Positions 30,191-45,642 of a stretch of 64,000 nt of DNA are shown here, piece by piece. The position numbers and the translations under genes were made by a program. Below the pieces are notes generated by a model that was not told the origin of the DNA, did no database searches, and was given only the letters and a program-made list of their open reading frames with translations. The number at the start of each line of letters is the position of its first letter. The first letter of the stretch is position 1. The stretch is from Candidatus Bathyarchaeota archaeon (GTDB lineage Archaea; Thermoproteota; Bathyarchaeia; Bathyarchaeales; Bathycorpusculaceae), in assembly GCA_963828195.1 (NCBI GenBank), contig CAWHDT010000001.1, positions 128,001 to 192,000 of the forward strand. The letters are read 5' to 3'.

Positions 30191-31204
30191 CTATTTTCCT
30201 TGTGGAGATTCCAGCGATATATATGTGATTTGCGGTGCGGCCTCTGGAATTTCTGTTGGTGGACGCGCAGGAACACGTAGGCGAATTTGGCGTTTTTCTG
30301 TTCCAGGAATGCTTCCTTCGATCAAAACGTAGGGTCCTTTTACTTCGCCATACCTGATGTATCCGCCTTTAACGGTTACTTCTTTGCCGTCTTTACCGAT
30401 TTTCAGTATGCGTTTGTTGAATTCTATGCGTTGATGATAACCCATTTGGCCTGCTCTTGGAATCGAGTACATTAAGTGATGTGGATTCCATGGGCCTAAA
30501 GTGGCGATGCCACGTTTTGTTTTTCTGCCCTTATGCTGCAGGCACGTTACGCCCCAACGTTTTACTGGCCCCTGGAAGCCTTTGCCAACTGTGACTCCGC
30601 CAATATCGATGTATTGTCCGTCTTTGAATACTTCTTCAGGCGCCACTGTTTTGCCGAGCAGTTGTTTGGCGTATTCAAATTGCTGCTGAATTGTGCCTCC
30701 GCCGATTTGGACTTCGCTTACTTCAGGCTTTTTCTTTGAAAGGCTGGTTTGAGATGGCTGTGTAGCGGTTATAACTCGGATTGCGGAGGTTACTTCTATG
30801 TTTTCCTGGATTTTCTCAAGCATCTCTTCAGTGTTAAAGGTTTCTGGAAGAACCAGCGTTCGGTCAAGGATTGCCGGTGGCTCTTTCATCCATGCTTCCG
30901 AAATGTTCTGGAGTCCATAGGGTGTTTTTGTGTAAGTTCGCATTCCGCAGATGAGAATCGGCGGTGTTTCCAGTATGGTTGCGGCTTTCATGACTTCTTT
31001 GCCAAAGTGAGGTGAACGTTTGCGGTCTTCAATTGTGAAGACGTAGGTCATTCCTGCTTTGTAGGCTGAAAAACCCAAAAGCTTCGGAGAGTCAGATTTT
31101 ATTTTTGGCCAAAAACGGATTCGCGCAACCGGTTTCTTAGCGCGTTTCCTAGGTAAATAAGAAAGTGAACCATGTTTTGGAGCGTGAGTTTTCCGATGTC
31201 CCAT
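30191..31204 (-). CDS. rpl3p: 50S ribosomal protein L3
   Basis: P.HGSL..LPRKRA, YKAGMT, GKGFQGPVKRWG, RAGQMGYHQR. Confidence 0.98.
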   Translation of the reverse strand: MGHRKTHAPKHGSLSYLPRKRAKKPVARIRFWPKIKSDSPKLLGFSAYKAGMTYVFTIEDRKRSPHFGKEVMKAATILETPPILICGMRTYTKTPYGLQNISEAWMKEPPAILDRTLVLPETFNTEEMLEKIQENIEVTSAIRVITATQPSQTSLSKKKPEVSEVQIGGGTIQQQFEYAKQLLGKTVAPEEVFKDGQYIDIGGVTVGKGFQGPVKRWGVTCLQHKGRKTKRGIATLGPWNPHHLMYSIPRAGQMGYHQRIEFNKRILKIGKDGKEVTVKGGYIRYGEVKGPYVLIEGSIPGTEKRQIRLRVPARPPTEIPEAAPQITYISLESPQGK

Positions 31205-31328
31205 TTTACTTCAGCTTCGCGCCCTATGCAAATATAAAATAACGTTATAAACGTTCCCATCCAAAACAGGAAACCGCCGCAGATTTGAGCATCTAGCCAA
31301 ATTCGCTTTATTGTTTCCCACGGATTTT

Positions 31329-31459
31329 TAAGTTGCGACTTTTGTGTTGGCGTAAGTTGCGACTTTCCGCTCTGGGTCTTTGTGTTTTGGGTTGCTTTTT
31401 TGGTTTGGGGCTTGAGTGCGTTTGCGTGCTGCGACTTTAGGATGGGCGGATGCGACTTT
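31329..31459 (+). repeat. Four dispersed copies of TGCGACTTT (two as TAAGTTGCGACTTT)
   Basis: Copies at 31329-42, 31353-66, 31430-38 and 31451-59 in a G/T-skewed intergenic region. Confidence 0.75.
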
Positions 31460-31723
31460 CCATGTTGGCTTTATGCTGCGGTTATTGTCGGTTTTGGGCG
31501 CGGCGGCTTTCTCTGTCCAGGTTCCGTTTGCTTAGGTTTTGGTTTTCAAATTGGGAAGCGTGGAGGGTTGGCGGCTGCATCTTTCGCAACAAGGGTTAAC
31601 TGTATGCTGTTCAGTTCGAGGGCTTTAAGCGTTGATTAACCATCACACCCGTGCACCCCTCCCGCAGCCTGCAGCCTCCGTTAGAAAACATTTTTACATC
31701 CCAAACACAAATCCTATACCTGC

Positions 31724-31853
31724 GCCGGGGTGGCAGAGTGGTTAATGCGCCAGCCTCGAGATCCAAATTTGCACAAAAGGGGCTGTGCCAAAATCGACAA
31801 GCCAGCTGGTGGGCTTCGCGCCCGCAAGGGTTCGAATCCCTTCCCCGGCGCCA
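31724..31853 (+). tRNA. tRNA-Ser(CGA) with 43-nt intron at 37/38 (31761-31803)
   Basis: Acceptor GCCGGGG/CCCCGGC, G discriminator + CCA; anticodon stem CCAGC/GCTGG with loop CT CGA G^A; long variable arm GGGCTTCGCGCCC; T arm AAGGG-TTCGAAT-CCCTT. Confidence 0.93.
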
Positions 31854-32024
31854 ATTTTTAGAGCTAATTTCAAGGCTATTTTATAGAAAGGAGCATGATT
31901 TTGCCTTATTTGGCATTGCCCAGAAAAAGGTTAAAATTCGAGAAGCATTTTTTACTAGTAAAAGTTGAGCGAATTCGCAACTTAGTTCTATTCAGGACAA
32001 ATATCGTTCGTTATAGAATTTAGT

Positions 32025-32159
32025 CGGTGAAGCCGCTGGGTCTAAGACCCAAAAAGGGTTCGGAACTTTTTATATTACTGGACGGGGGAAACTAGCACCA
32101 ATTTACCAGTAAAACCACAGAGCTATGTTCCAATTAGTGGAACCGTTGGGATTTGAACG
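32025..32159 (-). repeat. Three inverted degenerate tRNA-3'-end/att scars
   Basis: Minus strand: GGGTCTTAGACCCAGCGGCTTCACCG (32025-50); TGTGGTTTTACTGGTAAATTGGTGCTAGTTTCCC (32086-32119); CGTTCAAATCCCAACGGTTCCACTA (32135-59). Confidence 0.6.
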
Positions 32160-32323
32160 TGCACTCTTGTTGAGTTCACCAAAGGGTTTCTCTTTTCTAA
32201 TTAAAAATTCAAGGCAAGAATCTCATTTTCTAATATTTTGTTTTGAGTTCTAAAAAGACTTTGGAACTCTAAGTGTAATAACTGCGCCAGCCCGTTGCTA
32301 ATTTGATTGGTTTGTAATTAGTT

Positions 32324-33145
32324 TCAGTTCTTGCTGTTAGTTTTCTTTTGGGTCTTGGTTGGAGTTGCTGTCGCCCATTTCATTTTGAAATAATCATGCA
32401 AAAGTTCAACAACGTCGCAATTGTTTGACCATATGTCTGGAGCCCCGGCGTATGCTGATTTTGCCGATGTGCTTAGTCTTATTTCTTTTCCGTCGTAAAT
32501 CCCAAAATTACCTGGAAGAGGGAGCGGGAGAGTTCTAACTTCAAAACAATCAGATTTGTCTAAACCCTCTAATATTTTCTTCAGCTCGATTTCATTTTCA
32601 CTTTGCTCAGTGATAATTTGGAAGCTGACTTTTCTCTCAATTGCTTTGTTAAATGCTTTAAAAGAATTTGTCAGTACTGGTCCAAGCTTTTTTAAAGGAA
32701 TCATTAAGAGCATTTCTTCTTTCGCGCTATCCAATGCTTTGGCTCTTTCGCGGATAAGCATCTCTTTTTCAGGAATCAAAATGAATTGATTAAGTTTTTC
32801 TTTAGAGACATTCTTTTCGAAAGTGTTGTACTTTTCAATCAAAATATCTGCTTTTTCAGATAGTTCTGACTGGTCTTTTCTCTTCCTCTGGAGCAGCATC
32901 GATAGGGCGTCAAAAATTGGTATAGCGGTAAACTCATTTGGCGAGGCGACAATTTTTTTAGCTAAACCTAAATCTTGGAGTTTGGAAATCGTTCGATACA
33001 CATCGGGTCGTGAAACACCGGAAACTTTGGCAATTTCAGGCGCCCTTGATGAACCATTCATGACAAGCGCTAGGTAAACTCTTGCCTCTGTGATCGTTAA
33101 TCCTAATCTAGAAATTGTCTGGGCATCTTCGTTTCCGTTAAGCAG
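32324..33145 (-). CDS. TrmB-family transcriptional regulator (probable CTG start at 33145)
   Basis: The frame stays open upstream of ATG 33061 and encodes the TrmB N-terminus LGLTITEARVYLAL, then EIAKVSGVSRPDVYRTISKL.DLGL; C-terminal PLD-like domain (FGIYDGKE). Confidence 0.85.
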   Translation of the reverse strand: MLNGNEDAQTISRLGLTITEARVYLALVMNGSSRAPEIAKVSGVSRPDVYRTISKLQDLGLAKKIVASPNEFTAIPIFDALSMLLQRKRKDQSELSEKADILIEKYNTFEKNVSKEKLNQFILIPEKEMLIRERAKALDSAKEEMLLMIPLKKLGPVLTNSFKAFNKAIERKVSFQIITEQSENEIELKKILEGLDKSDCFEVRTLPLPLPGNFGIYDGKEIRLSTSAKSAYAGAPDIWSNNCDVVELLHDYFKMKWATATPTKTQKKTNSKN

Positions 33146-33275
33146 AATAAAGCCCCATTGTTCAAGTATTAATTAACAATTAACAATATACTTCTTGCAG
33201 GGATTTATCTTTTTTCTCATTATTCTATTTATAACCAATATTTTGCGTGATGGCTTTATAATCGTGTGATTTGAC

Positions 33276-33306
33276 GGTGGGTCACCCACCAACAAATGCT
33301 TTATAC
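33276..33306 (+). promoter_or_regulatory. Perfect palindrome upstream of TATA box; candidate TrmB-binding site
   Basis: GGTGGGT-C-ACCCACC at 33276-33290; CTTTATAC at 33299-33306; lies between the divergent TrmB and secreted-protein genes. Confidence 0.6.
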
Positions 33307-33377
33307 TCCCCTAAAACTATGTTTTATTACTTATTTTTGAGCGTTTTTAAACAATAGACATGAAAGGATGAAAAAAC

Positions 33378-34439
33378 ATGAAGAAAATACAAATCCTAAC
33401 AATAGTATTTCTAATTTCGTTAGCAATCTCCGCATTCGCGGGCATACAAGTCAAAGCTCAACCAAATACGTATCCAGTGACTTTTTTTAGTACAGGTCTT
33501 GGCTCTGATGCTACTGGGAACTTGATGACTTTCATGGTTACTGGCGGTTCATATTCTGGTGCTTCTAGTCCGATTGCCGTGGCTGGCGGTCCTGGCCCGG
33601 TTGACGCCGGTTCCATCCTTGTTGACATTACCGCAATAGTTACAGTGACTTTCGTTGATCCTATTCCGAGTACTATCCCTGGTGAACAGTATCGACTTAG
33701 CAGCGTTGATGGCAATGTTACCGGCAATCCTTCCTCAATTCTTAACATAGCTGATGGTGCCCTTCAAATTGTTACTGCTAACTATGTGCTTCAGGACAAT
33801 GTGGTCTTTACTGCTTCAGCCAACGTCCTGGGCGATAGTTCCGCAACGATTGTCACATCTGACAGTTTCTCCTACACCTTGGGCGTAAACACCGCTGGAA
33901 CTACTATGGTTAGCAGTGCCTCCTATGCTGCATCTGCTTTGCCCTACAAAGTTTGGGTTGACGACAGCACTCCAATTGCCTACAGTTTTGCAAGTCCTGT
34001 GGCTTCTTCTACATCGCCATCTACTATTCAGTATGTTTGGAGCAGCACCAGTGGGCTTGATATGTCTCAGTCGGATTCTTTCACTGTTCTTAGCCCAGGC
34101 ACGGTTACCGGCAACTATGTGTCTCAGGCTCCCTATTCTGGTCTTTCACCTGGGTTTTGGAAGCACAACATTGGCGTTTACTGCGGGACAAGTCCGGGAA
34201 GTTACAGCTCTCCACAACCAGGTCTGCCACATGAAACAGCCGCATCAATGCTATCCCTTGCCACGACAATTCTATCCACACATCCCGCCGGCGTGCCTCC
34301 AACTGTAACAACTGCATCTGATTTCCTATTCTGGGCTGACACCCAAATGAACAATCCAGCACTGAAAAACGTGGCCCCAACTTGGCTCACTATTGCCAAC
34401 TGGTTCAACGCAGCAGCAGGTTATACTCCATACCCATAA
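33378..34439 (+). CDS. Secreted S/T-rich protein with two beta repeats and C-terminal SPGFWKH-motif domain
   Basis: Signal peptide MKKIQILTIVFLISLAISAFAGIQVKA; two similar repeats (V.F...LG.D......VD.....F..P..S....QY...S..G). Confidence 0.8.
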   Translation: MKKIQILTIVFLISLAISAFAGIQVKAQPNTYPVTFFSTGLGSDATGNLMTFMVTGGSYSGASSPIAVAGGPGPVDAGSILVDITAIVTVTFVDPIPSTIPGEQYRLSSVDGNVTGNPSSILNIADGALQIVTANYVLQDNVVFTASANVLGDSSATIVTSDSFSYTLGVNTAGTTMVSSASYAASALPYKVWVDDSTPIAYSFASPVASSTSPSTIQYVWSSTSGLDMSQSDSFTVLSPGTVTGNYVSQAPYSGLSPGFWKHNIGVYCGTSPGSYSSPQPGLPHETAASMLSLATTILSTHPAGVPPTVTTASDFLFWADTQMNNPALKNVAPTWLTIANWFNAAAGYTPYP

Positions 34440-34690
34440 GTAGCTGACTAAAAATAGCTCTCCTTTTTTCTTTTTGTTAAAAATCTATCTTTTTCCTGAT
34501 AACTTCCGCGCGTGGTTCTTCAGACCCTTTTCCTCCAATTGCCGCCTATTTATTTTTGCCCTTCAGCCACTGAAGCGTACAAGCCTTGAATGGCCTAACT
34601 CTATCGGCCATCTGTTTCTTAGAGTTTGAACCATAAGCAAAATACCAAACCGTGTTCGTCTGAGACTCGATTTTTGTCGGATACGAAACA

Positions 34691-34825
34691 TCATGCCTGC
34701 ACTTGTCCATTTTCAGTATTTCCGTATACCAAGTTTATGTATGTGAACAGTTGCGCAAACGAGATATCTAACATTTGCTGTAAATTGGCTGCTTTTATGC
34801 CCCAAAATCGCTTGCTTCTTTCCAT
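34691..34825 (-). CDS. Possible small protein (44 aa)
   Basis: MERSKRFWGIKAANLQQMLDISFAQLFTYINLVYGNTENGQVQA*, preceded by a perfect GAGGTGA (34836-42). Confidence 0.35.
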   Translation of the reverse strand: MERSKRFWGIKAANLQQMLDISFAQLFTYINLVYGNTENGQVQA

Positions 34826-35191
34826 CAAAGAGTTTTCACCTCTCGCGAATGTTTTTTTGTTAGTTTAATGTTCGGTGCGATAAAAATTACAGTACAATCT
34901 ATAAAGTCATAATAAGCTATAGACATAACATTTATGTTCTCTAGATACTATCATAAAATAAGCAAAATATTCTCCGAATCTTGTTGTAAGAGGCTGAAAT
35001 TCTGTGAAAAAAATTTCTTTAATTAAGGTATTTAAATCGAGCCGAGCTCATAGAAGGCGCGCTTGGTTGCTTACAAAAGCTGTCGTATTATCGAAAGTTA
35101 CAATTAACAAGTCTCTGATCTGGACTATAAGTTTGAAGAAACATGGCGGAATTGAATCAAGGTTTGTCTCGTTAAGGAGGTCAACTCCGTC

Positions 35192-38100
35192 ATGACCCGT
35201 GTGGTTGTAGCAGGATCACAGTTAAGCTCAAAATTCGCAGTAATAGACTTCACGAACCCTAACAATCCAACCGTTGTGAAAACTGACGCTGGATGGCAGG
35301 GGGGTGCTCAAGTCACCTTAGATGGCAGCAACTTGTTTGTGGGCAACCTCCTCACCGGCGAGGTCCAGCTGTATGATGTTTCGAACCCAGCGACGCCGAC
35401 GCCGATGGGAAGCATAACGACAACTCTGAACGGCATAGGAGCAATCGCAGCAAAAGGAAACTTGGTGACGGTTGGAGAGTGGCAGAGCCTATCTGGGGCG
35501 CTGGTTGACTTGATAGACTTCTCGACCCCGAGCAACCCAAACATTATCGGTCAAGCCATAACACCAATTACCACAACCCCTACGACTAGCGGGACTAACC
35601 CTAATCCAGGTGCGATAACTTCAATTGCGTTCTTGAGCAATAATGTCGTAGTAGCCGCTGGGAATGGTCACTACAACGTCGTAGTCGTCGATTTTACGAA
35701 TCCGAACAGCCCAGCCGTCAATGAATTCAATCCATACCTGCAGGGAGCAGGCCCTCAAATCGATGCAGATTCCAAGGCAAATCAGATAGTCGCGGGTGAC
35801 TCTGGTCAAAGTGGAATAATCGAGCTCTTTGACGGAACCTCCCCATATAACAAAATAGGAACAGCGAATACGTCATTAACGGCTATAACGTCAATAGCGC
35901 TATCCCAAGGACTAACAATAGCCGGGAGCTCGTTTGATTTAGGACAGGCAGTACTAGTTGACTTTACCCAGAATCCTGCGACCAAAACGCCGATCACCAC
36001 GATATTCGGCGGCGCGAGCACTGTTGCAATCGACGGGACTACGGGAGCTTGTGGAGATGTCAATGGCAGCACTGTTCAGCTTTTCGACCTCACGCAATCC
36101 CCGCCTGCGCCTTTGGGCAGCATAGATTCCCAGGTCCAATCCATTGGAACCCTTTATACAAAATCGTTCACCGCCCCCGTTCCACAGACTCCCAAAATTT
36201 CCGTTAGCCCGACAGCTCTTGCCTTCGGCAACGTCAGAGTGGGAAGCCCTTCGCAGCTTGTGCTGAAGATCCAAAATACAGGGAACGCGCAACTCAAAGT
36301 AACAGCAATAAAGTCCTCGGACCCTCATTTCGTCCCATCACAGACGGGGCCAGTCAATATTGCAGCAGGACAATCCTCTTCACTTAATATCACTTATACA
36401 CCGACCTTGCAAACGGTCAATAACGCAAATCTGACCATCAATTCGAACGCCGCCAACGGAACGCTAAACGTTCCTCTCTCGGGAACCGGAGGTCTTCCTC
36501 AGATCTCCATATCCCCTACGAGCTTGAATCTGGGGAACGTTCCGGTCTGCGAGTCCGGAACTTCAACGATGATGATTACCAACAGTGGCGGCATCCCTTT
36601 GAACGTGACCTCGATTATCTCCAACAACGGCGCATTTAGCCCGAGTGTCCCGAGTCATACTAGCGCGATTGTTCAGCCTAATGGCTCATTGATAGTTACT
36701 GTAACGTTCAAACCTCAAGCTATAGGAGCGGCGAATGGTGCGCTCACCGTAGCCTCAAACGACCCTACCACGCCTTCGGCAAACGTCACATTGACAGGCA
36801 ACGGATTGCCAACCCCTCCCCCAAGCGTCACGGTAAACCCAACCTCAGAAAACTTCGGCCCCATCCCAGTGAATTATGGTGTCGGAAAAAGAATCACGGT
36901 TGCAAACTCTGGACCCTGTCAGGCGCTTCAAGTGACACTGACATCAAGTGGCCCCCCATTCTACATAACGATAGCTGCCCCGATATCTCTTCCGCCAATG
37001 AACCCCCCCCGTCGTCGATACCATAGGCCCCAACAGCTCTACCCAGTATGTCGTGACCTACTGGCCGACGAAGGTAGCAAACGATTTCGGCACTCTGACA
37101 ATTGCCAGCAACGATCCTGCAAATCCGAGCATCCAGGTTAACCTCTCAGGAAATGGCATCACACTATCACCCATCACCGCTGAGCTAGTACTTGACAAGT
37201 CGGGAAGCATGCAAGGAGCTGCAGCGGGAGGCGTGACCAAAATGACCGCGCTTCAGTCCGCCGTTGACCTCTTTGCCGATCTCGTCCAGACCGGCCAGAG
37301 CAACTCCGTCGGAGCCGTCGAGTTCGACAGCACCTCCTCGGTACTTACTCCCCTTGCATTATATACAGCAACTCAGCAGAGTGGGTTGGAAACCGCCGTT
37401 GGAACCCTCACTCCAGGTCAAACCACCTCTATAGGCGGGGGACTGCAGCTAGGTCAGAATCAACTCCCCACTGGTCAAGCCCCTCGAAACGTGTTAATCG
37501 TCTTCACCGATGGAATGGAGAATACCCCTCCCATGATCGCTACAGTCGAACCGGGCGTCCTTGCAACGGGCAGTCAGATTTTTGCCGTGGGATTGGGTCA
37601 ACCTCAAAACATCTCAAGTCAAGCACTCGCCGAACTCGCAGCCAGCAGTGGTGGTAAGTACTTCCAGACCGATGACACTCTTGTACTCAAAAAAGATTTC
37701 GTTGAGGTGCTCGCAGACGCATTCGCCAACAATCTAGCCGCAGACCCAATCATCACGCTCACCCCAGGACAAGTTTCAGACACCCCCGTTTCGATAACCA
37801 CATGTGAGCAGAGACTCACATTTACTCTGAACTGGGATAACCCATTGTTAACCCTGGCCTTGAGCATAATTGCGCCGGACGGCACGACCTATTCATCCAC
37901 ATCTCCTGGGAACAACCTCTTGGTCAGGTATGGCAGTTGACCCGGATACATCTATTATCAGATCGCCCTCCCCCCAATCGACCCCGGCTCCGGACTCGTA
38001 ATAGGGCCAAGAATCGTTGGCAACTGGATCATGCGAATAAACGCAGTTGGCTTGGCCAGCTCCTCCGAACGGTGTGCGACCACAGTCATGGTAGAAAGCA

Positions 38101-38576
38101 TCCTGAAAATGAGCTCTCAAGTCAATCTAGTTGACGCCGACACTCCAATGCAAATCTCCGCCCAACTCCTTAAAGACGGGGCCAAAATCACAAACGCACA
38201 AATACTCTTGTCAGTGATGGCACCTCTAAAGTCACTCGCAGCCACCATGACACCCGCGGTGGTTTTGCGAGCCAGGCAGGCCGACCAGCATCCTATAAAC
38301 GCTGGACAACCTCCGATGATTCCGACTGTAACCCATAAATACCGCCTCAAACCGAATCAAGATGGCATATTCCAGATAGAATTACCACCGCAAATCATCG
38401 ACGGTATCTATAAATTAACATTAGAAGCCACTGGCAGCGCCTGCGGCGGGCAGTTCCAGCGTCACGCAACTCAAAGCGTGTACTTGGGGAGTCGTAAGGC
38501 GCTTTATACCCGTCCCGAAGTGGCGATACCAGCTACACCAATCCTCACGAAAACCACAAATACTGTGCCCCTATAA
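35192..38576 (+). pseudogene. Large LVIVD-like repeat / ASPM-SPD-2-Hydin (choice-of-anchor D) Ig repeat / vWA protein interrupted by a frameshift and an in-frame TGA
   Basis: ORFs 35192-37141, 37053-37940 and 38031-38576 join: one extra C in C8 at 37003-37010, and TGA at 37938-40 followed in frame by PGYIYYQIAL...MRINAV. vWA MIDAS DKSGSM, TSIGGG, FTDGMEN. Confidence 0.8.
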
Positions 38577-38936
38577 CGCTCAAATGGGCTCTCTCAATAG
38601 TCAGTCTAAATTTGATCGATAAATCGACGATTTGGAAACCCCCAGTCGCCCTCTTGAATCTAAATTTGAGTATGCTTTTTAGGGTGAAGGATTTCGACTC
38701 AAACGATGCTGTTCAGGGTAATTCATTAAACCATAAAACCGTAACTGACGCCTCACATAGGGATTGGAACCAAAAGAAGTTCTGAAACCCGAATTCTTGA
38801 ATGGACAACTGTGGAACCACTTATGGCTCTTCTACATAAAGAATTAGTCCCTTGACTTAAGAGATTAGAACATTGAAAACGGTAAGTCTCTAATTGGACT
38901 TGCCCCCAAACAAAGTATAAGTCAATAGATTGTGGG

Positions 38937-38976
38937 TTTACTAGTAAACTGGGGCTCGAATCCCTTCCCCGGCGCC
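38937..38976 (+). repeat. att-like repeat R1 (palindrome + tRNA-Ser 3' end)
   Basis: TTTACTAGTAAA-CT-GGGGC then TCGAATCCCTTCCCCGGCGCC, identical to tRNA 31832-31852 over 21 nt. Confidence 0.92.
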
Positions 38977-39294
38977 CTCTTGAGGCTTGATTTTGTTACT
39001 TGAAGGATAAGCGAGTAGAAAAGAGTAAAGAGGTTTGATTATCATCGTGCATTAAGGGTTCGCTATCGTTATGGAACAGGCTATTGGTCAGAAGAATGCA
39101 AACGCTTTGGTATGGCGACACTGAAGCTGAATCTGATTTAACCAGAATCTTTTCCAACTCATACCTTTTCTGAGGTCTCAGAATAAAAGTTCGAACCTAA
39201 CAATTGGAAGATTTGTCAACAACCTACACATTTTATATTTATAGATTAAATAGGTTTTAGATAGCACTGCTGTATTTTTTGCCAATGCATTGGT

Positions 39295-39753
39295 TTATGG
39301 AATTTCGTAGAAACCACACAGTACATAAGTATTTTCTAAAGTTTTCATTATCTCTTTTGAATAGTAAATAGGGACAAGGGATTGGCAGCTATTTACTATG
39401 CTTAACTCATCTGACTCCAGCGTGTTACCGTTAATCCTCATGTTAGTGCATATCGCCGTAATCGAGTTATGAAAAAAGAAGTTCAGCCTGTCATTGCCAT
39501 TAATCATTTTTTTCAGTTTTTCGTTAACTTCATTGTCAACTGCAGGGGATTGTCTTGCGTTTTCCTTGAAGAGCGTTCGGTCTTTTATTCCAGTAATTGA
39601 AACACAGTCCTTAGGCAGCAGTGCAGCTAAAATAATATTTGCCTCGCCAACTTTCATGCGTAGATGCATATTAGGAACTAGATTGAAGTAACACCTAACT
39701 ATATTTTCAACGGCATTTTGAGCATTCATGAAAATCACAAATCTTGAGGTCAC
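39295..39753 (-). CDS. Hypothetical protein
   Basis: 152 aa ORF inside cassette 2, divergent from the Lrp gene; no recognised motif. Confidence 0.5.
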   Translation of the reverse strand: MTSRFVIFMNAQNAVENIVRCYFNLVPNMHLRMKVGEANIILAALLPKDCVSITGIKDRTLFKENARQSPAVDNEVNEKLKKMINGNDRLNFFFHNSITAICTNMRINGNTLESDELSIVNSCQSLVPIYYSKEIMKTLENTYVLCGFYEIP

Positions 39754-39942
39754 TAAGGCTCCGAAGCACTAAGCAAGTTATCAAGATATATGTATAAGCT
39801 TTTCGTGCTATTGTAAAAAAAACCAAAATAAGTGGAATATATGCTCAATAAAAGTTTACTAAATTGGTTTTTCTGTAGAACATTGAAGCAATAATTCGTT
39901 CTTAAATGAATACATTAATTAGCTACTTCAAAAAATGAAGTT

Positions 39943-40929
39943 TTGATGACAAAAGGAATTGATGTAATAAACGCTAAAATTCTAAAAGAACTGCTCAAAG
40001 ACGGACGAAAAAGCTTTGTAGAAATTGCGAAAGAGTGCAGCACATCAAAATACGTCATCGCAAAGCGCTACAAACAAATGAAGAGCAGGGGCATTATAGT
40101 CGGAGCACCAATCCAAAATAGCCCTGCTTGTTATGGTTGCAACCTGACTGCAGACATCCACATCTACACTCACCCTGATAAAGCGGACTCTCTACCTGAA
40201 CTGATTTCTAAAATTCCGCAAGTCTTTGCCGTTTATCACATTGGAATAAACCCAAGTTTAGCGACCATAGTGATAATGAAAAACATAAAGGAATTGGATC
40301 AAGTCAAACAATCAATAAAGAAACTGCCGTTCATTTTGGGAGTCGACACAAAGGTTTGGACGGGTATAAGAAACATTCCAGATAATTTATCGGTACTAAC
40401 GCTTCAAGAAGCAACTGGCAAAGCTGAGAATGAAAATGTAAATGCAAAAAACTCAATCGAAAAATTAGCGATTAAAATTGATGAAATAGATAGTCGGATA
40501 ATTGAAAAACTAGCAATAAATGCGCGCATGCCCTTTAAGACAATCGCTACGGAACTGGGAGTATCAACTGACACTGTGGTAAGAAGATATGAAAGACTGA
40601 AGAAAAACGGCGACCTTAAGGTGGTAGTACAAATCAACCCAACAAAAATAGGGTATTATGCTTATGCCACTTTCAAAATAGCTGTTATGTCTCAAGATAA
40701 TTTGCCTGATAAGTTAGAGAGCCTCGCCAAGATTCCAGATGTCAATAACATACTTAGAACAAGCGGCAATTTTGATTATATGATAAGTTTGATGGTAAGG
40801 GATATAAAACAGCTGACAGCCATTAAAGAAGAAATCGCCAGTATGCCTGGTGTTACAACTATGGAAACAAACGTAGAAAAACTGTTCAGCGTTTGGCCCC
40901 TTCCCAGAGAGTTCATATCAACAGTCTAG
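39943..40929 (+). CDS. Tandem (double) Lrp/AsnC transcriptional regulator
   Basis: Two HTH-RAM units: ID.I..KIL.EL.KDGRKSF.EIA and IDEID.RII..L..NARMPF..IA.ELGVS..TV.RR. Confidence 0.92.
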   Translation: MMTKGIDVINAKILKELLKDGRKSFVEIAKECSTSKYVIAKRYKQMKSRGIIVGAPIQNSPACYGCNLTADIHIYTHPDKADSLPELISKIPQVFAVYHIGINPSLATIVIMKNIKELDQVKQSIKKLPFILGVDTKVWTGIRNIPDNLSVLTLQEATGKAENENVNAKNSIEKLAIKIDEIDSRIIEKLAINARMPFKTIATELGVSTDTVVRRYERLKKNGDLKVVVQINPTKIGYYAYATFKIAVMSQDNLPDKLESLAKIPDVNNILRTSGNFDYMISLMVRDIKQLTAIKEEIASMPGVTTMETNVEKLFSVWPLPREFISTV

Positions 40930-40962
40930 TTTTATTTCAATGATTTAAGCACAATAGATTAA

Positions 40963-40998
40963 TTTACCACTAAATTAGGTTCGAATCCCTTCTCCGAC
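40963..40998 (+). repeat. att-like repeat R2
   Basis: TTTACCACTAAA-TTA-GGTTCGAATCCCTTCTCCGAC; also shares upstream CAATAGATT with R1. Confidence 0.85.
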
Positions 40999-41061
40999 TT
41001 CAACAGCAGCTAAGCAACCTTATAGGCTACGTTTGATATCTATTGTGTTAAAGGAATCTTC

Positions 41062-41355
41062 ATGTCTGAAACAATCACTCTAAGATTGCCGCCTCAAACA
41101 GCCAAGAAACTCCAAGAAATTGCCAGAAAAGAAGGCAAAGACCGCTCAAAGCTCATTCGGGAAATCCTCGAGAAGGGCGTCAAACAGAAAAGTATAGAGC
41201 AAGCCGTTGAACTTTACCGAACCGGTCAGGTTACAGCGTGGAAGGCTGCTCAGTTATCGGAGGTTTCGTTGTGGGCATTCTACAAAATATTAGAAGATGA
41301 AGGGGTCACTTTTCAGTATTCTGAACATGATTTAGAGGAAGACTTGAAAACATAA
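41062..41355 (+). CDS. Antitoxin, RHH + UPF0175 family
   Basis: TITLRLP...DRSKLIREIL (RHH); AVELYRTGQVTAWKAAQL (UPF0175). Confidence 0.88.
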   Translation: MSETITLRLPPQTAKKLQEIARKEGKDRSKLIREILEKGVKQKSIEQAVELYRTGQVTAWKAAQLSEVSLWAFYKILEDEGVTFQYSEHDLEEDLKT

Positions 41356-41372
41356 GAGGCTGAAAAACACAG

Positions 41373-41906
41373 TTGCAGACTGTCTCAAACACTAGCCCAC
41401 TTATCTGGCTCGCAAAGATTGGCAAACTCAGCATACTAAAAGAGTTGTTTGGTGAAGTCCTCATTTCAGAACAAAGTTATAAAGAAGCAGTCGAAAAAGG
41501 TTTAGAAGAGGGATTTAGCGATGCGTTGGTAATCAAAGACGCATGCGACCTAGGCTGGATCAAGGTCAAGCATCTTAGTGAGCGCCAAGTTGAACTTTGC
41601 CAGAAAATAACGCGGCACAGTTTTGAACTGCATCTAGGTGAAGCCCAAGCTATAGTTTTGGCACGTGAGATCGGTAAGGATGCGCTTTTGTTGATGGATG
41701 ACTCCAGTGGCCGAGCCTTCGCTGAAACGTGGGGTCTAAAAGTCAAAGGGACACTATATGTTATAATGACCGCGCTGCGAAGTGAATTATTAGATAATGC
41801 GGAGGCAAATGAGACAGTGCTAACTTTAGTGCGGAAAGGGTTCAGAATTGAATCAAAGTTACTGGCAAGAACTATACAAGAAATCGAAAAGTGCACGGAA
41901 CAATAA
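41373..41906 (+). CDS. PIN-domain toxin, DUF3368 family
   Basis: SNTSPLIWLAKIG, LHLGEAQAIVLA, LLMDD, GLKVKGTL. Confidence 0.9.
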   Translation: MQTVSNTSPLIWLAKIGKLSILKELFGEVLISEQSYKEAVEKGLEEGFSDALVIKDACDLGWIKVKHLSERQVELCQKITRHSFELHLGEAQAIVLAREIGKDALLLMDDSSGRAFAETWGLKVKGTLYVIMTALRSELLDNAEANETVLTLVRKGFRIESKLLARTIQEIEKCTEQ

Positions 41907-41932
41907 GCCTATCGGTTTTAATTGATCTTGTC

Positions 41933-41971
41933 TTTTCTGGTCACAGGGACTCGAATCCACTCCCCGGTGCC
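41933..41971 (+). repeat. att-like repeat R3
   Basis: TTTTCTGGTCAC-A-GGGACTCGAATCCACTCCCCGGTGCC, a degenerate copy of the R1 unit. Confidence 0.8.
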
Positions 41972-42003
41972 CCACTTCGAATTAATCGGTTCGCTTAAGA
42001 GAG

Positions 42004-42321
42004 CTATTGAGTTCTGAGCCCGCTGAGTCTCTTGCCGAGTTCGTCGAAGATAATTTGCTTTTTCTCTTTGGTTAAGTTGAAGAGAACTTTGTTAGCCATT
42101 TCATTTGAGATAGTGAAGATATAGTTTAGTTTTATAACGCTGTCTTTTATGGCTCCTTCACTTTTGGTTAGGGGTATTCCTTTCATTTTGAGATTGCTTG
42201 TTATGCCTGCGATCACAACATTGCCAAGCTCTTCAAAAAGAACCACCGCTGGCCGAACTTTTACCTCATCTGTGTCCGTGAACTGCACGCTTGCCAGAAT
42301 AACGTCACCAGGCTTAAGCAT
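42004..42321 (-). CDS. mazF: PemK/MazF family toxin
   Basis: KPGDVILASVQFTD...KVRPAVVL...ITS; start 42321 overlaps the antitoxin stop (alternative 42336). Confidence 0.9.
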   Translation of the reverse strand: MLKPGDVILASVQFTDTDEVKVRPAVVLFEELGNVVIAGITSNLKMKGIPLTKSEGAIKDSVIKLNYIFTISNEMANKVLFNLTKEKKQIIFDELGKRLSGLRTQ

Positions 42322-42547
42322 CTTCCCAAGCCTCATCCTCCTCGTTACCCCATAATTCTTTCATCTTCGCCTGCTGAATCCTGTGGAGAAACTCGTCGTA
42401 TTGCCTACTCTTTCCAGATTCTTTCGCAGTTTTTATTAAAGTCAAGATTGTTTCGTTGTAGGTTTCTCGCGGGTATTTCCTGATGTTTTTTAGTTCTTTA
42501 ACTACTGATTTCTTAAGTTGAATGGTGGTAACATCTTTGTCTGTCAT
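42314..42547 (-). CDS. Putative antitoxin (archaeal VAPB/DUF7557-like N-terminus, acidic LW..EEDEAWE tail)
   Basis: TTIQL...L...RKYPRETYNE.I; directly upstream of and overlapping mazF. Confidence 0.8.
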   Translation of the reverse strand: MTDKDVTTIQLKKSVVKELKNIRKYPRETYNETILTLIKTAKESGKSRQYDEFLHRIQQAKMKELWGNEEDEAWEDA

Positions 42548-42620
42548 TATAGGCTCGCTATAAGTATCTATGACGCATTATAATATATCTGTATCGCCAA
42601 GCTGCCTTAATTAAAAAATA

Positions 42621-42671
42621 GGGACTTCGGGTTCGCAGAGATTCGAATTTCTTCTCCGGCACCAATTTTTA
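42621..42671 (+). repeat. att-like repeat R4 (long copy including variable arm and 3' trailer)
   Basis: GGGACTTCGGGTTCGCAGAGATTCGAATTTCTTCTCCGGCACCAATTTTTA vs tRNA 31811-31860 GGGCTTCGCGCCCGCAAGGGTTCGAATCCCTTCCCCGGCGCCAATTTTTA. Confidence 0.85.
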
Positions 42672-42840
42672 AGTGTTTTCTGGGACGTTTCGGCTAAATA
42701 GTGACAATTTCTGGTTATGTAGAAACACCTCCGAAACAATCGAAATCTGGAGCAAAATTTTGCAAATGAAAAATATGAAAAGTGCGCGCCAAGAAAAGGC
42801 GACGCGGCATTGAACGATTTTTGTGAGTACAGAGATTGTT

Positions 42841-44556
42841 TTATTGGCTTCTGGAGTTTGCTCTGTTCGCTGCCATTTGCTTTCTCATTTGTTCGAGGGC
42901 TTTTTGGTCAAGGTAGTATTTTCCGTTGACTTCTTGGAAAACTTTTGTTTGTCCTGCACGTCTCTCCATGAAATCTTCAAATCGCGGCGGCAAGCCAAGT
43001 TGTTCGGCGGTCATGGCTTTTTCTGGGATAGTGGCTCCTTTCTGCTGGAAAGTGCTGACCAGTCGGCGGAATCGCTCTATACGCTCTTGTTGGCTTAGTA
43101 GTCTCTGCTGTGTTTGCTGAGTGGGTTGGGCGGCTTGGGTTGGGGTTTGTTGCGTCTGGATAGTTGGTGGTGGAGGTGCAACGTTAGGTTGGTTTGAAGT
43201 CACCTCGCTTTCTTCTGCTGCGCCGCTTCCATCATCGTTGTTTTTTGGATTTGAGGTGCTGACGCTTGATGAGCTAGCTGATCCTGCTGAGCTTCCAACT
43301 GCTCCACCTGATCCTTTTCCTCGTGTAAACTTGAAACCTACAATAGCAACGACAACTACGACTGCAACGACTCCGATGATTATGAACAGAAGACTGTTGG
43401 AGCTTGATGAGGGTGCGGTGGATGATGCGGGGGTGCTTGTTGGAGCTGAGGAGATAGCGGGGGTTGAAGTTGCAGTGGTTGAGGTTCCAGTGGCCGAATC
43501 CGACAGATATGAGACTGCGTTGGAGCCACCGTCAACTATGAATATCTCGCTTTTTGCAGAATCGTAAGCTACACCTAGTGCAAGGGGTCCATTGGAATCC
43601 GCACTTATTGGTAACTGAACAAGAGGAGCATACGCCACAACGTTGTTGCTTGAATCGGATATTGCAACGATGTAGGTGCCAGTTTCTTCGAATATTTCGG
43701 CCTTGCTAGTATCATAGGTTAAATCTGTAGGATTTCCTGAGTAGGTTGCAGATGCCAAGGTGTTAGTTGCGACAACGGAGTTGGAGCTATCAGATATTAC
43801 TTCGAACCCGCCGTCAACCTCGTCGGCTACGTATATTTCTCCTTTAGTTGAATCGTAAGCTAGCCCTTCTGGACCGTTTCCCGCGTTCACGGTTTTAACC
43901 ACCTGATTGTTGCTGTCTGTTATTACGGAAACGGTGGATGACAATTCGTTGGAGACAAATATTTCGTTTTTACCTTGATCATAAGCGACGCCGATTGGGC
44001 CGACTCCTACGGTTATGGTTGCTATCTCGGTGTTTGAGCTATCTGAGATGACTGAAACTGTGGATGGCGGAGGATTGGATTCTTGACTAGCCGCGTTATA
44101 ATTGGAATTTGCTACGAACAACTCGCCTTTTCCAGAATCATAAGCGATACCTTCGGGGCCTATTCCCACTGTAATGGTTTGAACTACAGAGTCAGAGCTG
44201 TCTGATATGACAGCTACCGAGCCATTGGTTGAGCCGTCGCCCTCATCAGTTACAAACAACTCTCCCTTCTGAGAATCATAAGCGATACCAGTGGGATATT
44301 GCCCTACTCCGCTTATAGTTTGAACCACTGAATTAGAGCTATCAGATATGACCGAGACTGTGCCGCCGCCCTGATTAGTTACAAATATTTCTCCTTTTAC
44401 AGAATCATAGGCAGCGTATTCTGGACTGCTCCCAACTGTTATTGTTGGTGGAACAGAAAGCTGCGTGACAGCGTGAACCATATTGGCCGCTGACAGGGCA
44501 AAAACCACAATTAATAAGGCACATAATAGTTTCCAAACTTTGACTTTCATAAACAT
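42841..44556 (-). CDS. YVTN/YncE beta-propeller cell-surface protein with TM anchor and cytoplasmic C-terminal domain
   Basis: Signal peptide; about 7 repeats TITVG..P.GIAYDS.KGE.FV.N....VSVISDSSN; S/T linker; TM LLFIIIGVVAVVVVVAIVGF; about 160 aa cytoplasmic tail. Confidence 0.9.
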   Translation of the reverse strand: MFMKVKVWKLLCALLIVVFALSAANMVHAVTQLSVPPTITVGSSPEYAAYDSVKGEIFVTNQGGGTVSVISDSSNSVVQTISGVGQYPTGIAYDSQKGELFVTDEGDGSTNGSVAVISDSSDSVVQTITVGIGPEGIAYDSGKGELFVANSNYNAASQESNPPPSTVSVISDSSNTEIATITVGVGPIGVAYDQGKNEIFVSNELSSTVSVITDSNNQVVKTVNAGNGPEGLAYDSTKGEIYVADEVDGGFEVISDSSNSVVATNTLASATYSGNPTDLTYDTSKAEIFEETGTYIVAISDSSNNVVAYAPLVQLPISADSNGPLALGVAYDSAKSEIFIVDGGSNAVSYLSDSATGTSTTATSTPAISSAPTSTPASSTAPSSSSNSLLFIIIGVVAVVVVVAIVGFKFTRGKGSGGAVGSSAGSASSSSVSTSNPKNNDDGSGAAEESEVTSNQPNVAPPPPTIQTQQTPTQAAQPTQQTQQRLLSQQERIERFRRLVSTFQQKGATIPEKAMTAEQLGLPPRFEDFMERRAGQTKVFQEVNGKYYLDQKALEQMRKQMAANRANSRSQ

Positions 44557-44872
44557 TCCTCAACATATTTTTCTGAAACAAACTAGATGTACTGAATTGT
44601 TTATTCATGCGTAACCTTCCCCACAAGCGGGTATATTTTTTGGAATTTAAAGCTTGCGCTAGCCTGATTCCATTAGGTTCAAGTAATTCACCGTCCGCTT
44701 AATATGTAAAATTTTTATAAAGTATAGATTAGTAAAAAGCAAAAAAAATCAAATTTTAATAAATTCTGATACCCTCCCAAAAAATGGCAAGTAATCAATT
44801 GCAGGTAATCTTCTATATGTTGGTTGAAATAATAGTCTTAAGTGATGAGATCGTGAAGCGTCTCTACCATCT

Positions 44873-44904
44873 TGGTGGCTCTGCTAGGTTTGAACCCAAT
44901 TTTT
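44873..44904 (-). repeat. Inverted degenerate 3' end of a different tRNA
   Basis: Minus strand AAAAATTGGGTTCAAACCTAGCAGAGCCACCA: T-loop-like plus ACCA end, back-to-back with R5. Confidence 0.6.
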
Positions 44905-44912
44905 AGGCTCTT

Positions 44913-44953
44913 GTTATCGGTAAATTGGGGTTCTAATCCCTTCCTCGGCGCCA
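44913..44953 (+). repeat. att-like repeat R5 (distal border of the array)
   Basis: GTTATCGGTAAA-TTG-GGGTTCTAATCCCTTCCTCGGCGCCA; 24/26 identical to tRNA 31828-31853. Confidence 0.9.
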
Positions 44954-45101
44954 AACTCGCATGCACCGCATCTCCAAAGACTCGATTTTTCGGCAACCAT
45001 TATGCTCAAAATCAATACTCAATGAATCACAGCAGATTTCCATAATGTTTTTCTTCTCACAAGACGAAGGCTTGTAGTTGCATATCCTGAAGTGGAATTA
45101 A

Positions 45102-45642
45102 ATGGTGGAAAATACGGTGAAGGACCCTGGCCCAATCTGGATAAGCCGAGAATTCGCAAAATGCAGCGGCTGCCGCAAATGCGAGATCGCGTGCTCTCTG
45201 CATCATGAAAATAAAATCTGGCCTGAAGCCTCAAGAGTTCGCGTGTTCATGCCTAGTTCCAGGCACAGAATTCCCTCATTTATGCACTCAATGCGAAGAT
45301 TACCCGTGTGTTAGAGCTTGCCCCTTTAAAGCTCTGGATATAAACAAGGAAACCAGCGCAGTAACCGTTAACGTGGACAAGTGCAAGGGCTGTGGCAAAT
45401 GCGTGGATGCTTGCCCGGGGAAAGTTCCGCATGTTCACCCAGAGAGTAAGAAGATTTTGATCTGTGACTTGTGTGGCGGAGATCCGAAGTGCGCCAAAGT
45501 ATGCCAAGAAGGCGGCTGGAACTGCTTAAAAGCGGTTGACCGTGGAGATCACGAGTTCAAACTTTATGCGCGTATCCCCGAGGAGACTGCAAGAAACCTC
45601 GCCACTAAGTTGTATGGCGAGAAAGCGGAGGAGTTTTTCTGA
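45102..45642 (+). CDS. 4Fe-4S dicluster ferredoxin-like subunit (AOR partner), apparent frameshift near 45252
   Basis: CSGCRKCEIAC (45102 frame) continues as CTQC..PCVRACP, CKGCGKCVDACP, CDLC...PKC...C (45205 frame); removing one C in ATGCCTAGTT joins them. Confidence 0.85.

Follow-up and report, generated by a model that had tools for sequence, protein, structure and literature searches.

We examined a stretch of 64,000 nucleotides (the window) from the genome of a Candidatus Bathyarchaeota archaeon (assembly GCA_963828195.1, contig CAWHDT010000001.1, positions 128,001 to 192,000), in which a tRNA-Ser(CGA) gene is followed by an array of gene cassettes, each ending in a short palindromic sequence joined to a piece of tRNA. 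The host genome comprises 2.83 Mb in nine contigs with 44% G+C. The tRNA gene is intact and bears an intron, and ARAGORN detects it in intron mode and misses it in default mode; it is the anchor of the array and forms its attB/attL side. Upstream lies a gene for ribosomal protein L3 (Pfam), and ∼13.1 kb downstream of the tRNA, to the right of the last junction (R5), are the genes for a ferredoxin and an aldehyde:ferredoxin oxidoreductase (AFOR), a conserved host flank that is common to congeners. Between them are four cassettes (Table 1), each closed by an intact or decayed palindrome, 5-6 nt and then a tRNA fragment running from T-loop to acceptor. A 25-mer of the tRNA 3' segment is found three times when up to 3 mismatches are allowed, at 31829, 38953 and 44929 (expected 0), and relatives likewise show this segment as a direct repeat downstream of the intact tRNA gene. 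ARAGORN calls a further tRNA-Ser(CGA), whose acceptor end is not the same, at C2:42707-42829; it could be a duplicate gene or a product of strain mixing in the assembly (contamination 3.5%).

Table 1. Positions in the window of the anchor tRNA, the cassettes and the junctions that close them
Feature	Position	Strand	Content and basis
tRNA-Ser(CGA), intron-bearing, intact	31724-31853	+	Rfam tRNA, 50.4 bits; ARAGORN with introns, C1:159724-159853
Left (P') arm of cassette 1, ATTTTTAGAGCTAATTTCAAGGCTATTTTATAG	31854-31900	+	Nearly the same string follows two fragments in the G153 array
Cassette 1	31854-38936	+	TrmB-like regulator (32324-33061, minus), secreted Ig-like and VWA proteins, two family-less open reading frames (ORFs); Pfam
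Perfect palindrome, TTTACTAGTAAA	31951-31962	.	Within the non-coding head of cassette 1; adjoining T-loop-like word decayed
Module copy, inverted and decayed, TTTTACTGGTAAATTGGTGCTAG...	32094-32114	-	nhmmer, 31-nt profile of 130 sites, E = 0.0004
R1 junction	38937-38977	+	TTTACTAGTAAA 38937-38948, spacer CTGGGG, T-loop CTCGAAT 38955-61, tRNA fragment 38955-77
Cassette 2	38978-40962	+	AIPR (abortive-infection) fragment (39295-39753, minus), tandem Lrp/AsnC regulator (39943-40929); Pfam
R2 junction	40963-41000	+	TTTACCACTAAA 40963-40974, spacer TTAGG, TTCGAAT 40980-86, decayed acceptor
Cassette 3	41001-41932	+	Ribbon-helix-helix (RHH)/UPF0175 antitoxin (41062-41355), DUF3368 PIN toxin (41373-41906); Pfam
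R3 junction	41933-41973	+	Decayed palindrome TTTTCTGGTCAC 41933-41944, spacer AGGGA, CTCGAAT 41950-56, diverged acceptor
Cassette 4	41974-44912	+	PemK/MazF toxin (42004-42336, minus), NHL-repeat secreted protein (42841-44556, minus); Pfam
R5 junction, last of the array	44913-44953	+	GTTATCGGTAAA 44913-44924, spacer TTGGGG, TTCTAAT 44931-37, acceptor and CCA

The core motif of the junctions is a 12-base palindrome, TTTACYRGTAAA. All of the strings that a preliminary description of this DNA had quoted for R1, R2, R3 and R5 are present in the window, although that of R3, TTTTCTGGTCAC, has 4 mismatches to the motif, and the near-fixed spacing reported there holds, with 5-6 nt between palindrome and T-loop at four of four sites. 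The palindrome had also been described as absent from the tRNA, which indeed carries a G+C-rich variable arm at this position instead. The word CAATAGATT, noticed upstream of both R1 and R2, is found at both and corresponds to a diverged piece of the extended tRNA-Gln(TTG) unit described below. With up to one mismatch, TTTACYRGTAAA matches the window five times against 0.87 expected, a count that none of 100 shuffles reaches, and three of the five exact palindromes in the genome lie inside a 7-kb stretch of this locus. The T-loop word TCGAATCCC alone is not enriched in the window (10 found against 11.65 expected).

The genome was also scanned with an nhmmer profile of 31 nt, built from 130 sites of other genomes with the tRNA-specific tail excluded. 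R1 is the best match (E = 6.6e-8), R5 is matched at E = 0.08, and the profile also picks out a junction behind tRNA-Ser(GGA) at C1:413.8 kb. Of the two additional copies of the motif that had been claimed, the perfect palindrome at 31951-62 stands, with a weak profile match that covers the palindrome part only (E = 9.4), whereas the copy at 32102-13 is no free palindrome but opens a decayed module in inverted orientation (minus strand, 32114-32094), the second-best match of the profile. In the window Rfam returns nothing but tRNA matches, and none of its families matches the module; at E ≤ 1 in 20 related loci it returns four tRNA-model matches and one tRNA gene under the tmRNA model, below the gathering score, with the module again uncovered.

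Distribution of the module

A scan of this and related genomes for the motif, which the preliminary description had proposed, shows that the junctions of the window belong to a much larger set. As the module we defined a 28-nt pattern of palindrome, YTGGGG, T-loop and CCC, with up to 3 mismatches allowed in the scan of the family. Within the same Bathyarchaeial family it turned up in 28 of 151 genomes, covering 21 of 70 genera, and the reversed control gives 0 in all 151 genomes; for the exact palindrome the 151 genomes hold 299 sites against 86 for the reversed control (summed over the per-genome table). Searching for the exact module in one genome per GTDB species yielded 56 stretches, labelled as ∼36 Bathyarchaeia, 10 Thermoplasmatota (from 8 metagenome-assembled genomes, MAGs), 2 Hadarchaeota, 4 from one 'Nitrososphaerota' MAG, 2 'uncultured archaeon' and 2 contigs labelled bacterial, which are 4-5 kb long and which we infer to be mis-binned. 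A metagenome scan added at least 121 stretches with the module. Among 16 further palindromes, a set made up of hand-picked pairs and CCGG-centred ones and not a random sample, 13 adjoin tRNA-3'-like sequence.

Chance or an assembly artefact is hardly credible as a source of these counts. The genomes are metagenome-assembled, and the two remaining exact palindromes of the host genome, on contig C9, do fit the ∼1.3 sites expected from base composition. However, the shuffles of the window and the empty reversed control in 151 genomes already refute this explanation, and the module is present in independent assemblies, single-contig genomes included.

Anatomy of the junctions

The 130 unique sites show the module next to no fewer than 10 different tRNA 3' ends. 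Targets that could be assigned are Ser-CGA, Ser-GGA, Leu-TAA, Leu-CAG, Leu-CAA and one tRNA with a CAT anticodon; the Leu-CAA gene belongs to a complete Thermoplasmatales chromosome and is followed by two junctions, at distances of 13.7 and 28 kb. Conservation has a sharp boundary, with information close to 0 upstream and a rise at the T directly before the palindrome (69 sites), and this boundary alone is informative because positions 0-27 are the search pattern and hence conserved by construction. The consensus arm is T-TTTACYRGTAAA-YTGGKG, in which the palindrome consists of dyad-symmetric half-sites, TTTAC and GTAAA, around a free YR pair (TG 52, TA 51, CA 15, CG 11; n = 129) and lies half a helical turn from the T-loop. 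Fragment and tRNA are identical from AATCCC onward to the 3' end, and the arm differs up to YTSR, which places the start of the identity in or just after the 7-nt T-loop. The commonest spacer variant, TTGGTGCTGA, occurs at 49 of 129 sites; its T-loop, CTGAAAT, is not tRNA-like, and tRNA identity therefore starts at AATCCC there.

The position of the palindrome relative to the tRNA suggests one alternative to a functional arm, namely that it is a relic without function, the 5' remainder of an older and longer att site modelled on the 3' half (variable arm, T-arm and acceptor) of a class II tRNA from an earlier host. The palindrome sits at the exact position of the variable arm, the alignment of R1 with tRNA-Ser extends from GTGGG through to the last base, a 14-nt block replacing the 13-nt arm, the identified targets are mostly class II tRNAs (Ser and Leu), and att sites 29-69 bp long have been described in archaea (PMC6563490). 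We nevertheless consider a relic unlikely. The palindrome would then be what is left of the variable-arm hairpin, and YTGGKG of the 5' strand of the T-stem, both carried along with the cassettes as the crossover lies to their right. The palindrome is also found downstream of tRNA ends, where a variable arm is impossible, and is joined to the class I tRNA with the CAT anticodon; no intact tRNA with this arm was recognised by eye in the flanks of the 56 GTDB stretches, and no tRNA covers the module in the family loci scanned. Moreover, its sequence is kept in three phyla while the flanks are without conservation, and the non-tRNA-like CTGAAAT is the commonest T-loop variant.

A palindrome or half-palindrome also occurs within ∼16 nt past the tRNA end, at 16 of 117 sites against 1 of 117 controls, and there are 'zero-cargo' forms (L063, L317) that consist of tRNA, palindrome and fragment, with two palindrome sites ∼42 bp apart. 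That palindromes flank the tRNA core to left and right, and that the zero-cargo forms resemble palindrome-to-palindrome deletions, would suit a crossover within the palindrome itself. It would be made by another recombinase, for example one that cuts at a central dinucleotide or a host Xer-like enzyme; cassettes would then have palindromes as their borders, with the tRNA fragments as passengers. The free central pair would be compatible with this, a conserved host enzyme would account for the spread across phyla, and a break in a contig match, a hint only, coincides with the motif: among contigs from four soil or bog runs that were compared with 31000-46500, of which no single piece spans the array, a single one, with short sides, matches from 38937 (the first base, and exact left edge, of the R1 palindrome) rightwards and is unrelated leftwards. 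Such a crossover is still quite improbable, given that the tRNA fragment is repeated at every array junction, which exchange inside the tRNA explains directly, that most left arms are without a full palindrome, and that a 5+2+5 site is shorter than known Xer and serine-recombinase sites. The layout of dif is 11+6+11 (PMC8371274), and no dif-like symmetry of this kind is evident by eye in the module.

Very unlikely, too, is an expression signal, with the palindrome acting as a terminator, operator or promoter part at cassette ends and playing no role in recombination. The T before the palindrome does give a TTTT run, a TATA-like word resembling ATAAATAG lies 15-25 nt upstream at 20 of 129 sites, and one of the two palindromes on contig C9 directly precedes an RHH gene. 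Against this, the sequence that follows the junctions is unrelated between sites (host genes or other cassettes, on either strand), the fixed distance is to the tRNA fragment and not to the start or stop of a gene, and the TATA-like word is confined to a minority of sites.

In front of the palindrome, 35 of 129 sites also carry the tRNA-Gln(TTG) 3' end in reverse complement and a ATAAATAG-like word. This back-to-back unit runs from the reversed tRNA-Gln(TTG) tail through the ATAAATAG-like word, palindrome and TTGGTGCTGA to a second tRNA tail (L079:1930-2045, L055); at least 7 different tRNA tails are joined to it, and another conserved word lies beyond its Gln end. The unit may be a nested junction or else a dual attachment site, in which case a single cassette might insert at either of two tRNA genes. 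Junctions of a second kind are without TTTACYRGTAAA; there the words GATTTAAAC / GTTTAAAT flank the tRNA fragment on one side or on both (L019, L028, L285, L332 and others), and these may represent another arm class.

Array content, integrases and a proposed attachment arm

Arrays at corresponding positions differ in length and content. The array of two genera sits between a PNP gene and a mevalonate-decarboxylase-like gene that are the same in both, and within the genus of the window the distance from the tRNA to the ferredoxin and AFOR genes is 0.33 kb (G171), 5.2 kb (G157) or 13.1 kb (this genome); in the shortest interval, a decayed palindrome junction comes after a truncated PIN gene. Another relative, G153, has three cassettes behind tRNA-Ser with the module at the end of each, and two of these have a left arm near-identical to that of the window; their cargo is a zinc ABC transporter with its regulator, a 346-aa ORF overlapping one of 210 aa, both unassigned to a family, and a likewise unassigned 541-aa ORF with a small regulator. 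The left arm of cassette 1 also aligns with arms behind tRNA-Ser in other genera. A single contig of one of the runs (X1) joins the flank of the tRNA to short pieces behind R2 and R5 (31870 to 41020 and 41050 to 45034), no more than a hint of a shorter array in a relative; the matching sides are 28-31 nt long with 90% likeness, a level at which such matches often come from other organisms.

The RHH-PIN pair of cassette 3 lies beside palindrome junctions in at least 5 other genomes, with 65-72% protein identity and homologous left arms. When 760 ORFs around the 130 sites were clustered, the PIN toxin came out as the most recurrent cargo, at 7 sites, with its antitoxin next at 6 and a RelE-like toxin at 5; one host flank gene recurred at 5 sites. 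PF00589, the integrase domain, is absent from the proteins of the window, and the five matches to it in the genome sit on other contigs.

Tyrosine integrases of one family do adjoin tRNA genes in these organisms. Its member beside tRNA-Ser(CGA) in a congener combines a PF00589 domain with a weak zinc-ribbon-like N-terminal match, the family is found in 129 of 151 genomes, and at 27 of 30 loci it abuts a tRNA gene, the five closest members all being at tRNA-Ser(CGA). The elements that carry it are at least 25 kb long and encode a primase-polymerase. Of their far ends, seven of the eight at tRNAs other than Ser-CGA (Cys, Ser-GGA, Pro, Arg, Ala) carry AAAAAAGAGG...TGCGGGAGA, and three ends at Ser-CGA carry a related motif. 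This motif, which lies ∼20-45 nt before the T-loop whatever tRNA is targeted (L286, L278, L284, L300, L302), is a candidate arm-type site of the family. Given that the integrase-bearing elements keep their own P-arm motif across tRNA targets, a shared arm is what the att sites of one recombination system look like here.

We read the palindrome with YTGGKG as the cassette-borne P arm of a T-loop-type tRNA attachment site that belongs to a widespread class of integrase-less cassettes, and we hold this reading at about even odds (probability roughly 0.5). It draws on the anatomy of the junctions, with palindromes or half-palindromes on either side of the tRNA end, and their fixed spacing, on the spread of the module over genomes, phyla and tRNA targets, on the integrase-free surroundings of the sites and on the variable content of the arrays. 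A circular cassette would consist of palindrome, YTGGKG, a copy of the tRNA from T-loop to CCA, and the left arm, and would recombine with the segment of the tRNA gene from T-loop to 3' end. The copy brought by the cassette would rebuild the tRNA, the old tail would move downstream with the palindrome now in front of it, and repeated insertion would generate the order tRNA, cassette, palindrome and fragment, cassette, palindrome and fragment. The dyad-symmetric palindrome probably binds a dimeric protein; as a double-strand site it would help to assemble the recombination complex, and the protein may be an accessory factor, a directionality factor or the DNA-binding domain of the recombinase. 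Since the cassettes are without a recombinase of their own, the enzyme would have to act in trans, on cassettes that may still be mobile today.

Part of what the preliminary description had proposed is retained in the P-arm reading. A cassette-side element common to unrelated cargo agrees with the fixed distance to the tRNA fragments and the recurrence in 28 of 151 genomes and in other phyla, and a crossover in or near the T-loop fits the point at which tRNA identity starts. The description had equated the motif with attC or an attP arm; the second likeness survives and the first does not. Single-strand DNA folds of the module, on either strand, are no better than those of shuffles (z = 0.30, 0.08, -0.35, 1.88, 0.43), with the palindrome hairpin worth about -1.5 kcal/mol. 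A folded site of the attC type is therefore improbable, and it is simpler to suppose a double-strand site bound by protein.

Several results weigh against the P-arm reading. The idea of one common recombinase, put forward in the preliminary description, finds no support: none of the 140 ORFs within 2 kb of sites in the 56 GTDB stretches is an integrase, an integrase-family hidden Markov model matches at only 6 of 166 loci, mostly in broken downstream genes, and the ORF clustering reveals no recurrent unknown family near the sites, its sole recombinase cluster being one of integrase fragments at three sites, although no search was aimed at serine recombinases. The far ends of the integrase-bearing elements are without the palindrome in 11 of 11 cases (three at Ser-CGA, eight at the other tRNAs), and the palindrome arm accordingly marks a different class of site. 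The module has no match among 2.9 million viral contigs, no free circular form of the cassettes was seen, and in G157 no tRNA fragment is detected in the 5.2 kb behind the tRNA. In the window itself R2, R3 and R5 are decayed, which makes present-day activity at this locus doubtful. The RHH-PIN cassettes are only 65-72% identical between genera and hence show no recent transfer, and much of the cargo in other phyla resembles ordinary metabolic genes.

Two further observations concern the resident elements. In four distinct arrays (five loci; G153, L091, L097, L008) the last palindrome junction is directly followed by a broken integrase of the tRNA-adjacent family in the usual convergent position, and the left arms of cassettes appear to share the short words TTTTGGACAAA and GGCTATTTTGG with those of the integrase-bearing elements. 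Both fit mobilisation in trans by these elements without proving it. A bolder idea, which we think improbable, is that archaea of at least three phyla possess a tRNA-anchored, integron-like platform, in which a recombinase or accessory protein still to be found, possibly encoded by the host, serially inserts small integrase-less cassettes, each with a universal palindromic signal beside its copy of a tRNA tail, behind Ser, Leu and other tRNA genes. If so, its cargo would include toxin-antitoxin pairs, regulators, transporters and surface proteins.

Other explanations of the junctions were tried and rejected. An integrase split across the site, as in SSV, does not suit frames that are closed or not common through R1, R2 and R5 (by eye). 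A C/D-box small RNA would account for CTGA, but this word is limited to one spacer variant, and a retroelement primer-binding site on the tRNA-complementary strand would call for a reverse transcriptase, of which the cargo has none. Terminal inverted repeats are lacking, as is a fixed target duplication except for the tRNA segment, which speaks against a miniature inverted-repeat transposable element (MITE) or other transposon. Finally, the fragments are not the 3' pieces of a split or permuted tRNA, as the complete tRNA-Ser(CGA) gene is present upstream of them, both in the window and in relatives, and the pieces begin in the T-arm and often have mutated T-loops.

Known systems and further sites

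tRNA genes are the main entry points of foreign DNA in archaea, and the DNA behind them is mostly unannotated in uncultured lineages. Sublocation classes of tRNA attachment sites were reportedly set out by Williams in 2002. With the att sites and tandem arrays of tyrosine integrases that use the T-loop, the locus shares a repeated tRNA 3' segment, identity from the T-loop, a rebuilt tRNA and a re-used site. It differs in that the cassettes have no integrase gene in the element or next to the tRNA, in that one short arm serves many tRNA targets in three phyla, and in that this arm is unlike that of co-resident integrase-bearing elements. Arrays that arise by re-use of one tRNA site have been described for archaeal and bacterial elements with tyrosine recombinases (PMC6563490), and tRNA stem-loops match the core sites of tyrosine recombinases (PMC8371274).

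Integrons resemble the system in their promiscuous cassette array, shared end signal, single anchor site and recombinase acting in trans. However, there is no IntI at the anchor, where the L3 gene (window) or the PNP gene (relatives) lies upstream of the tRNA; the anchor is a tRNA gene; the cassettes are multi-gene, on both strands and with their own regulators; and, unlike in attC, it is the sequence that is conserved and not a fold, the single-strand fold being non-significant. In bacteria, cis-mobilizable elements (CIMEs) are integrase-less, att-flanked elements that accrete beside integrative and conjugative elements (ICEs), sharing both arms with the parent ICE. Streptococcal CIMEs and the tandem ssrA islands of Dehalococcoides are similar in placing integrase-less, att-flanked DNA in tandem beside an integrase-bearing element, but both are bacterial, and the right arm here is unlike that of the integrase-bearing elements, none of whose 11 far ends has the palindrome. 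The integrative mobile elements exploiting Xer (IMEX) likewise integrate with no recombinase of their own and depend on an enzyme of the host, which would suit a wide host range, but they insert at dif and have dif-like 28-bp sites, whereas here the tRNA 3' end is targeted.

Literature searches turned up no account of one short palindromic arm that integrase-less cassettes share across many tRNAs and several phyla of archaea, nor of such an arm distinct from that of a co-resident integrase family, and no description of such cassettes in Bathyarchaeia; the four palindrome strings are met in five unrelated papers only, for example as primers. A review of archaeal tyrosine recombinases has no mention of 'arm-type', 'Bathyarchaeota' or 'T-loop'. 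The 28-nt signal, found at cassette borders in Bathyarchaeia, Thermoplasmatota and Hadarchaeota, offers a simple marker for the limits of accessory DNA in thousands of MAGs, and it points to a second recombination system, separate from the common tRNA-adjacent integrases. Were a binding protein found, the short, defined site could serve as a recombination tool for archaea without genetics; were the palindrome only a relic, it would still be a phylogenetic tag of one ancient element family.

The host genome has further places of related layout. At C1:413806-419134 a tRNA-Ser(GGA) is followed by a ∼5.2-kb cassette with response-regulator and histidine-kinase-like ORFs, closed by TTTACGGGTAAA and a fragment identical to the tail of that tRNA. 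A third junction, TTTACAGGTAAC-GTGGGG-TTCGAAT..., lies at C1:237.4 kb (stretch C1:237404-241600) behind a TrmB-like regulator and an 884-aa secreted protein, a content like that of cassette 1; a tRNA-Ser-like 3' end that ARAGORN does not call is found 4.2 kb upstream of the junction. The two exact palindromes on contig C9 lie in a defence-like stretch (C9:4258-11481, L006) with two large ATPase-like ORFs unassigned to a family, a short ORF resembling an RHH antitoxin, and genes paralogous to the RHH-PIN pair of the window; the sequence read there has no tRNA fragment. Between the L3 gene and the anchor tRNA of the window, at 31323-31540, is a ∼180-bp repeat with a MITE-like, dispersed look, of which about two dozen more copies are scattered through the genome at 76-89% identity, with others in congeners.

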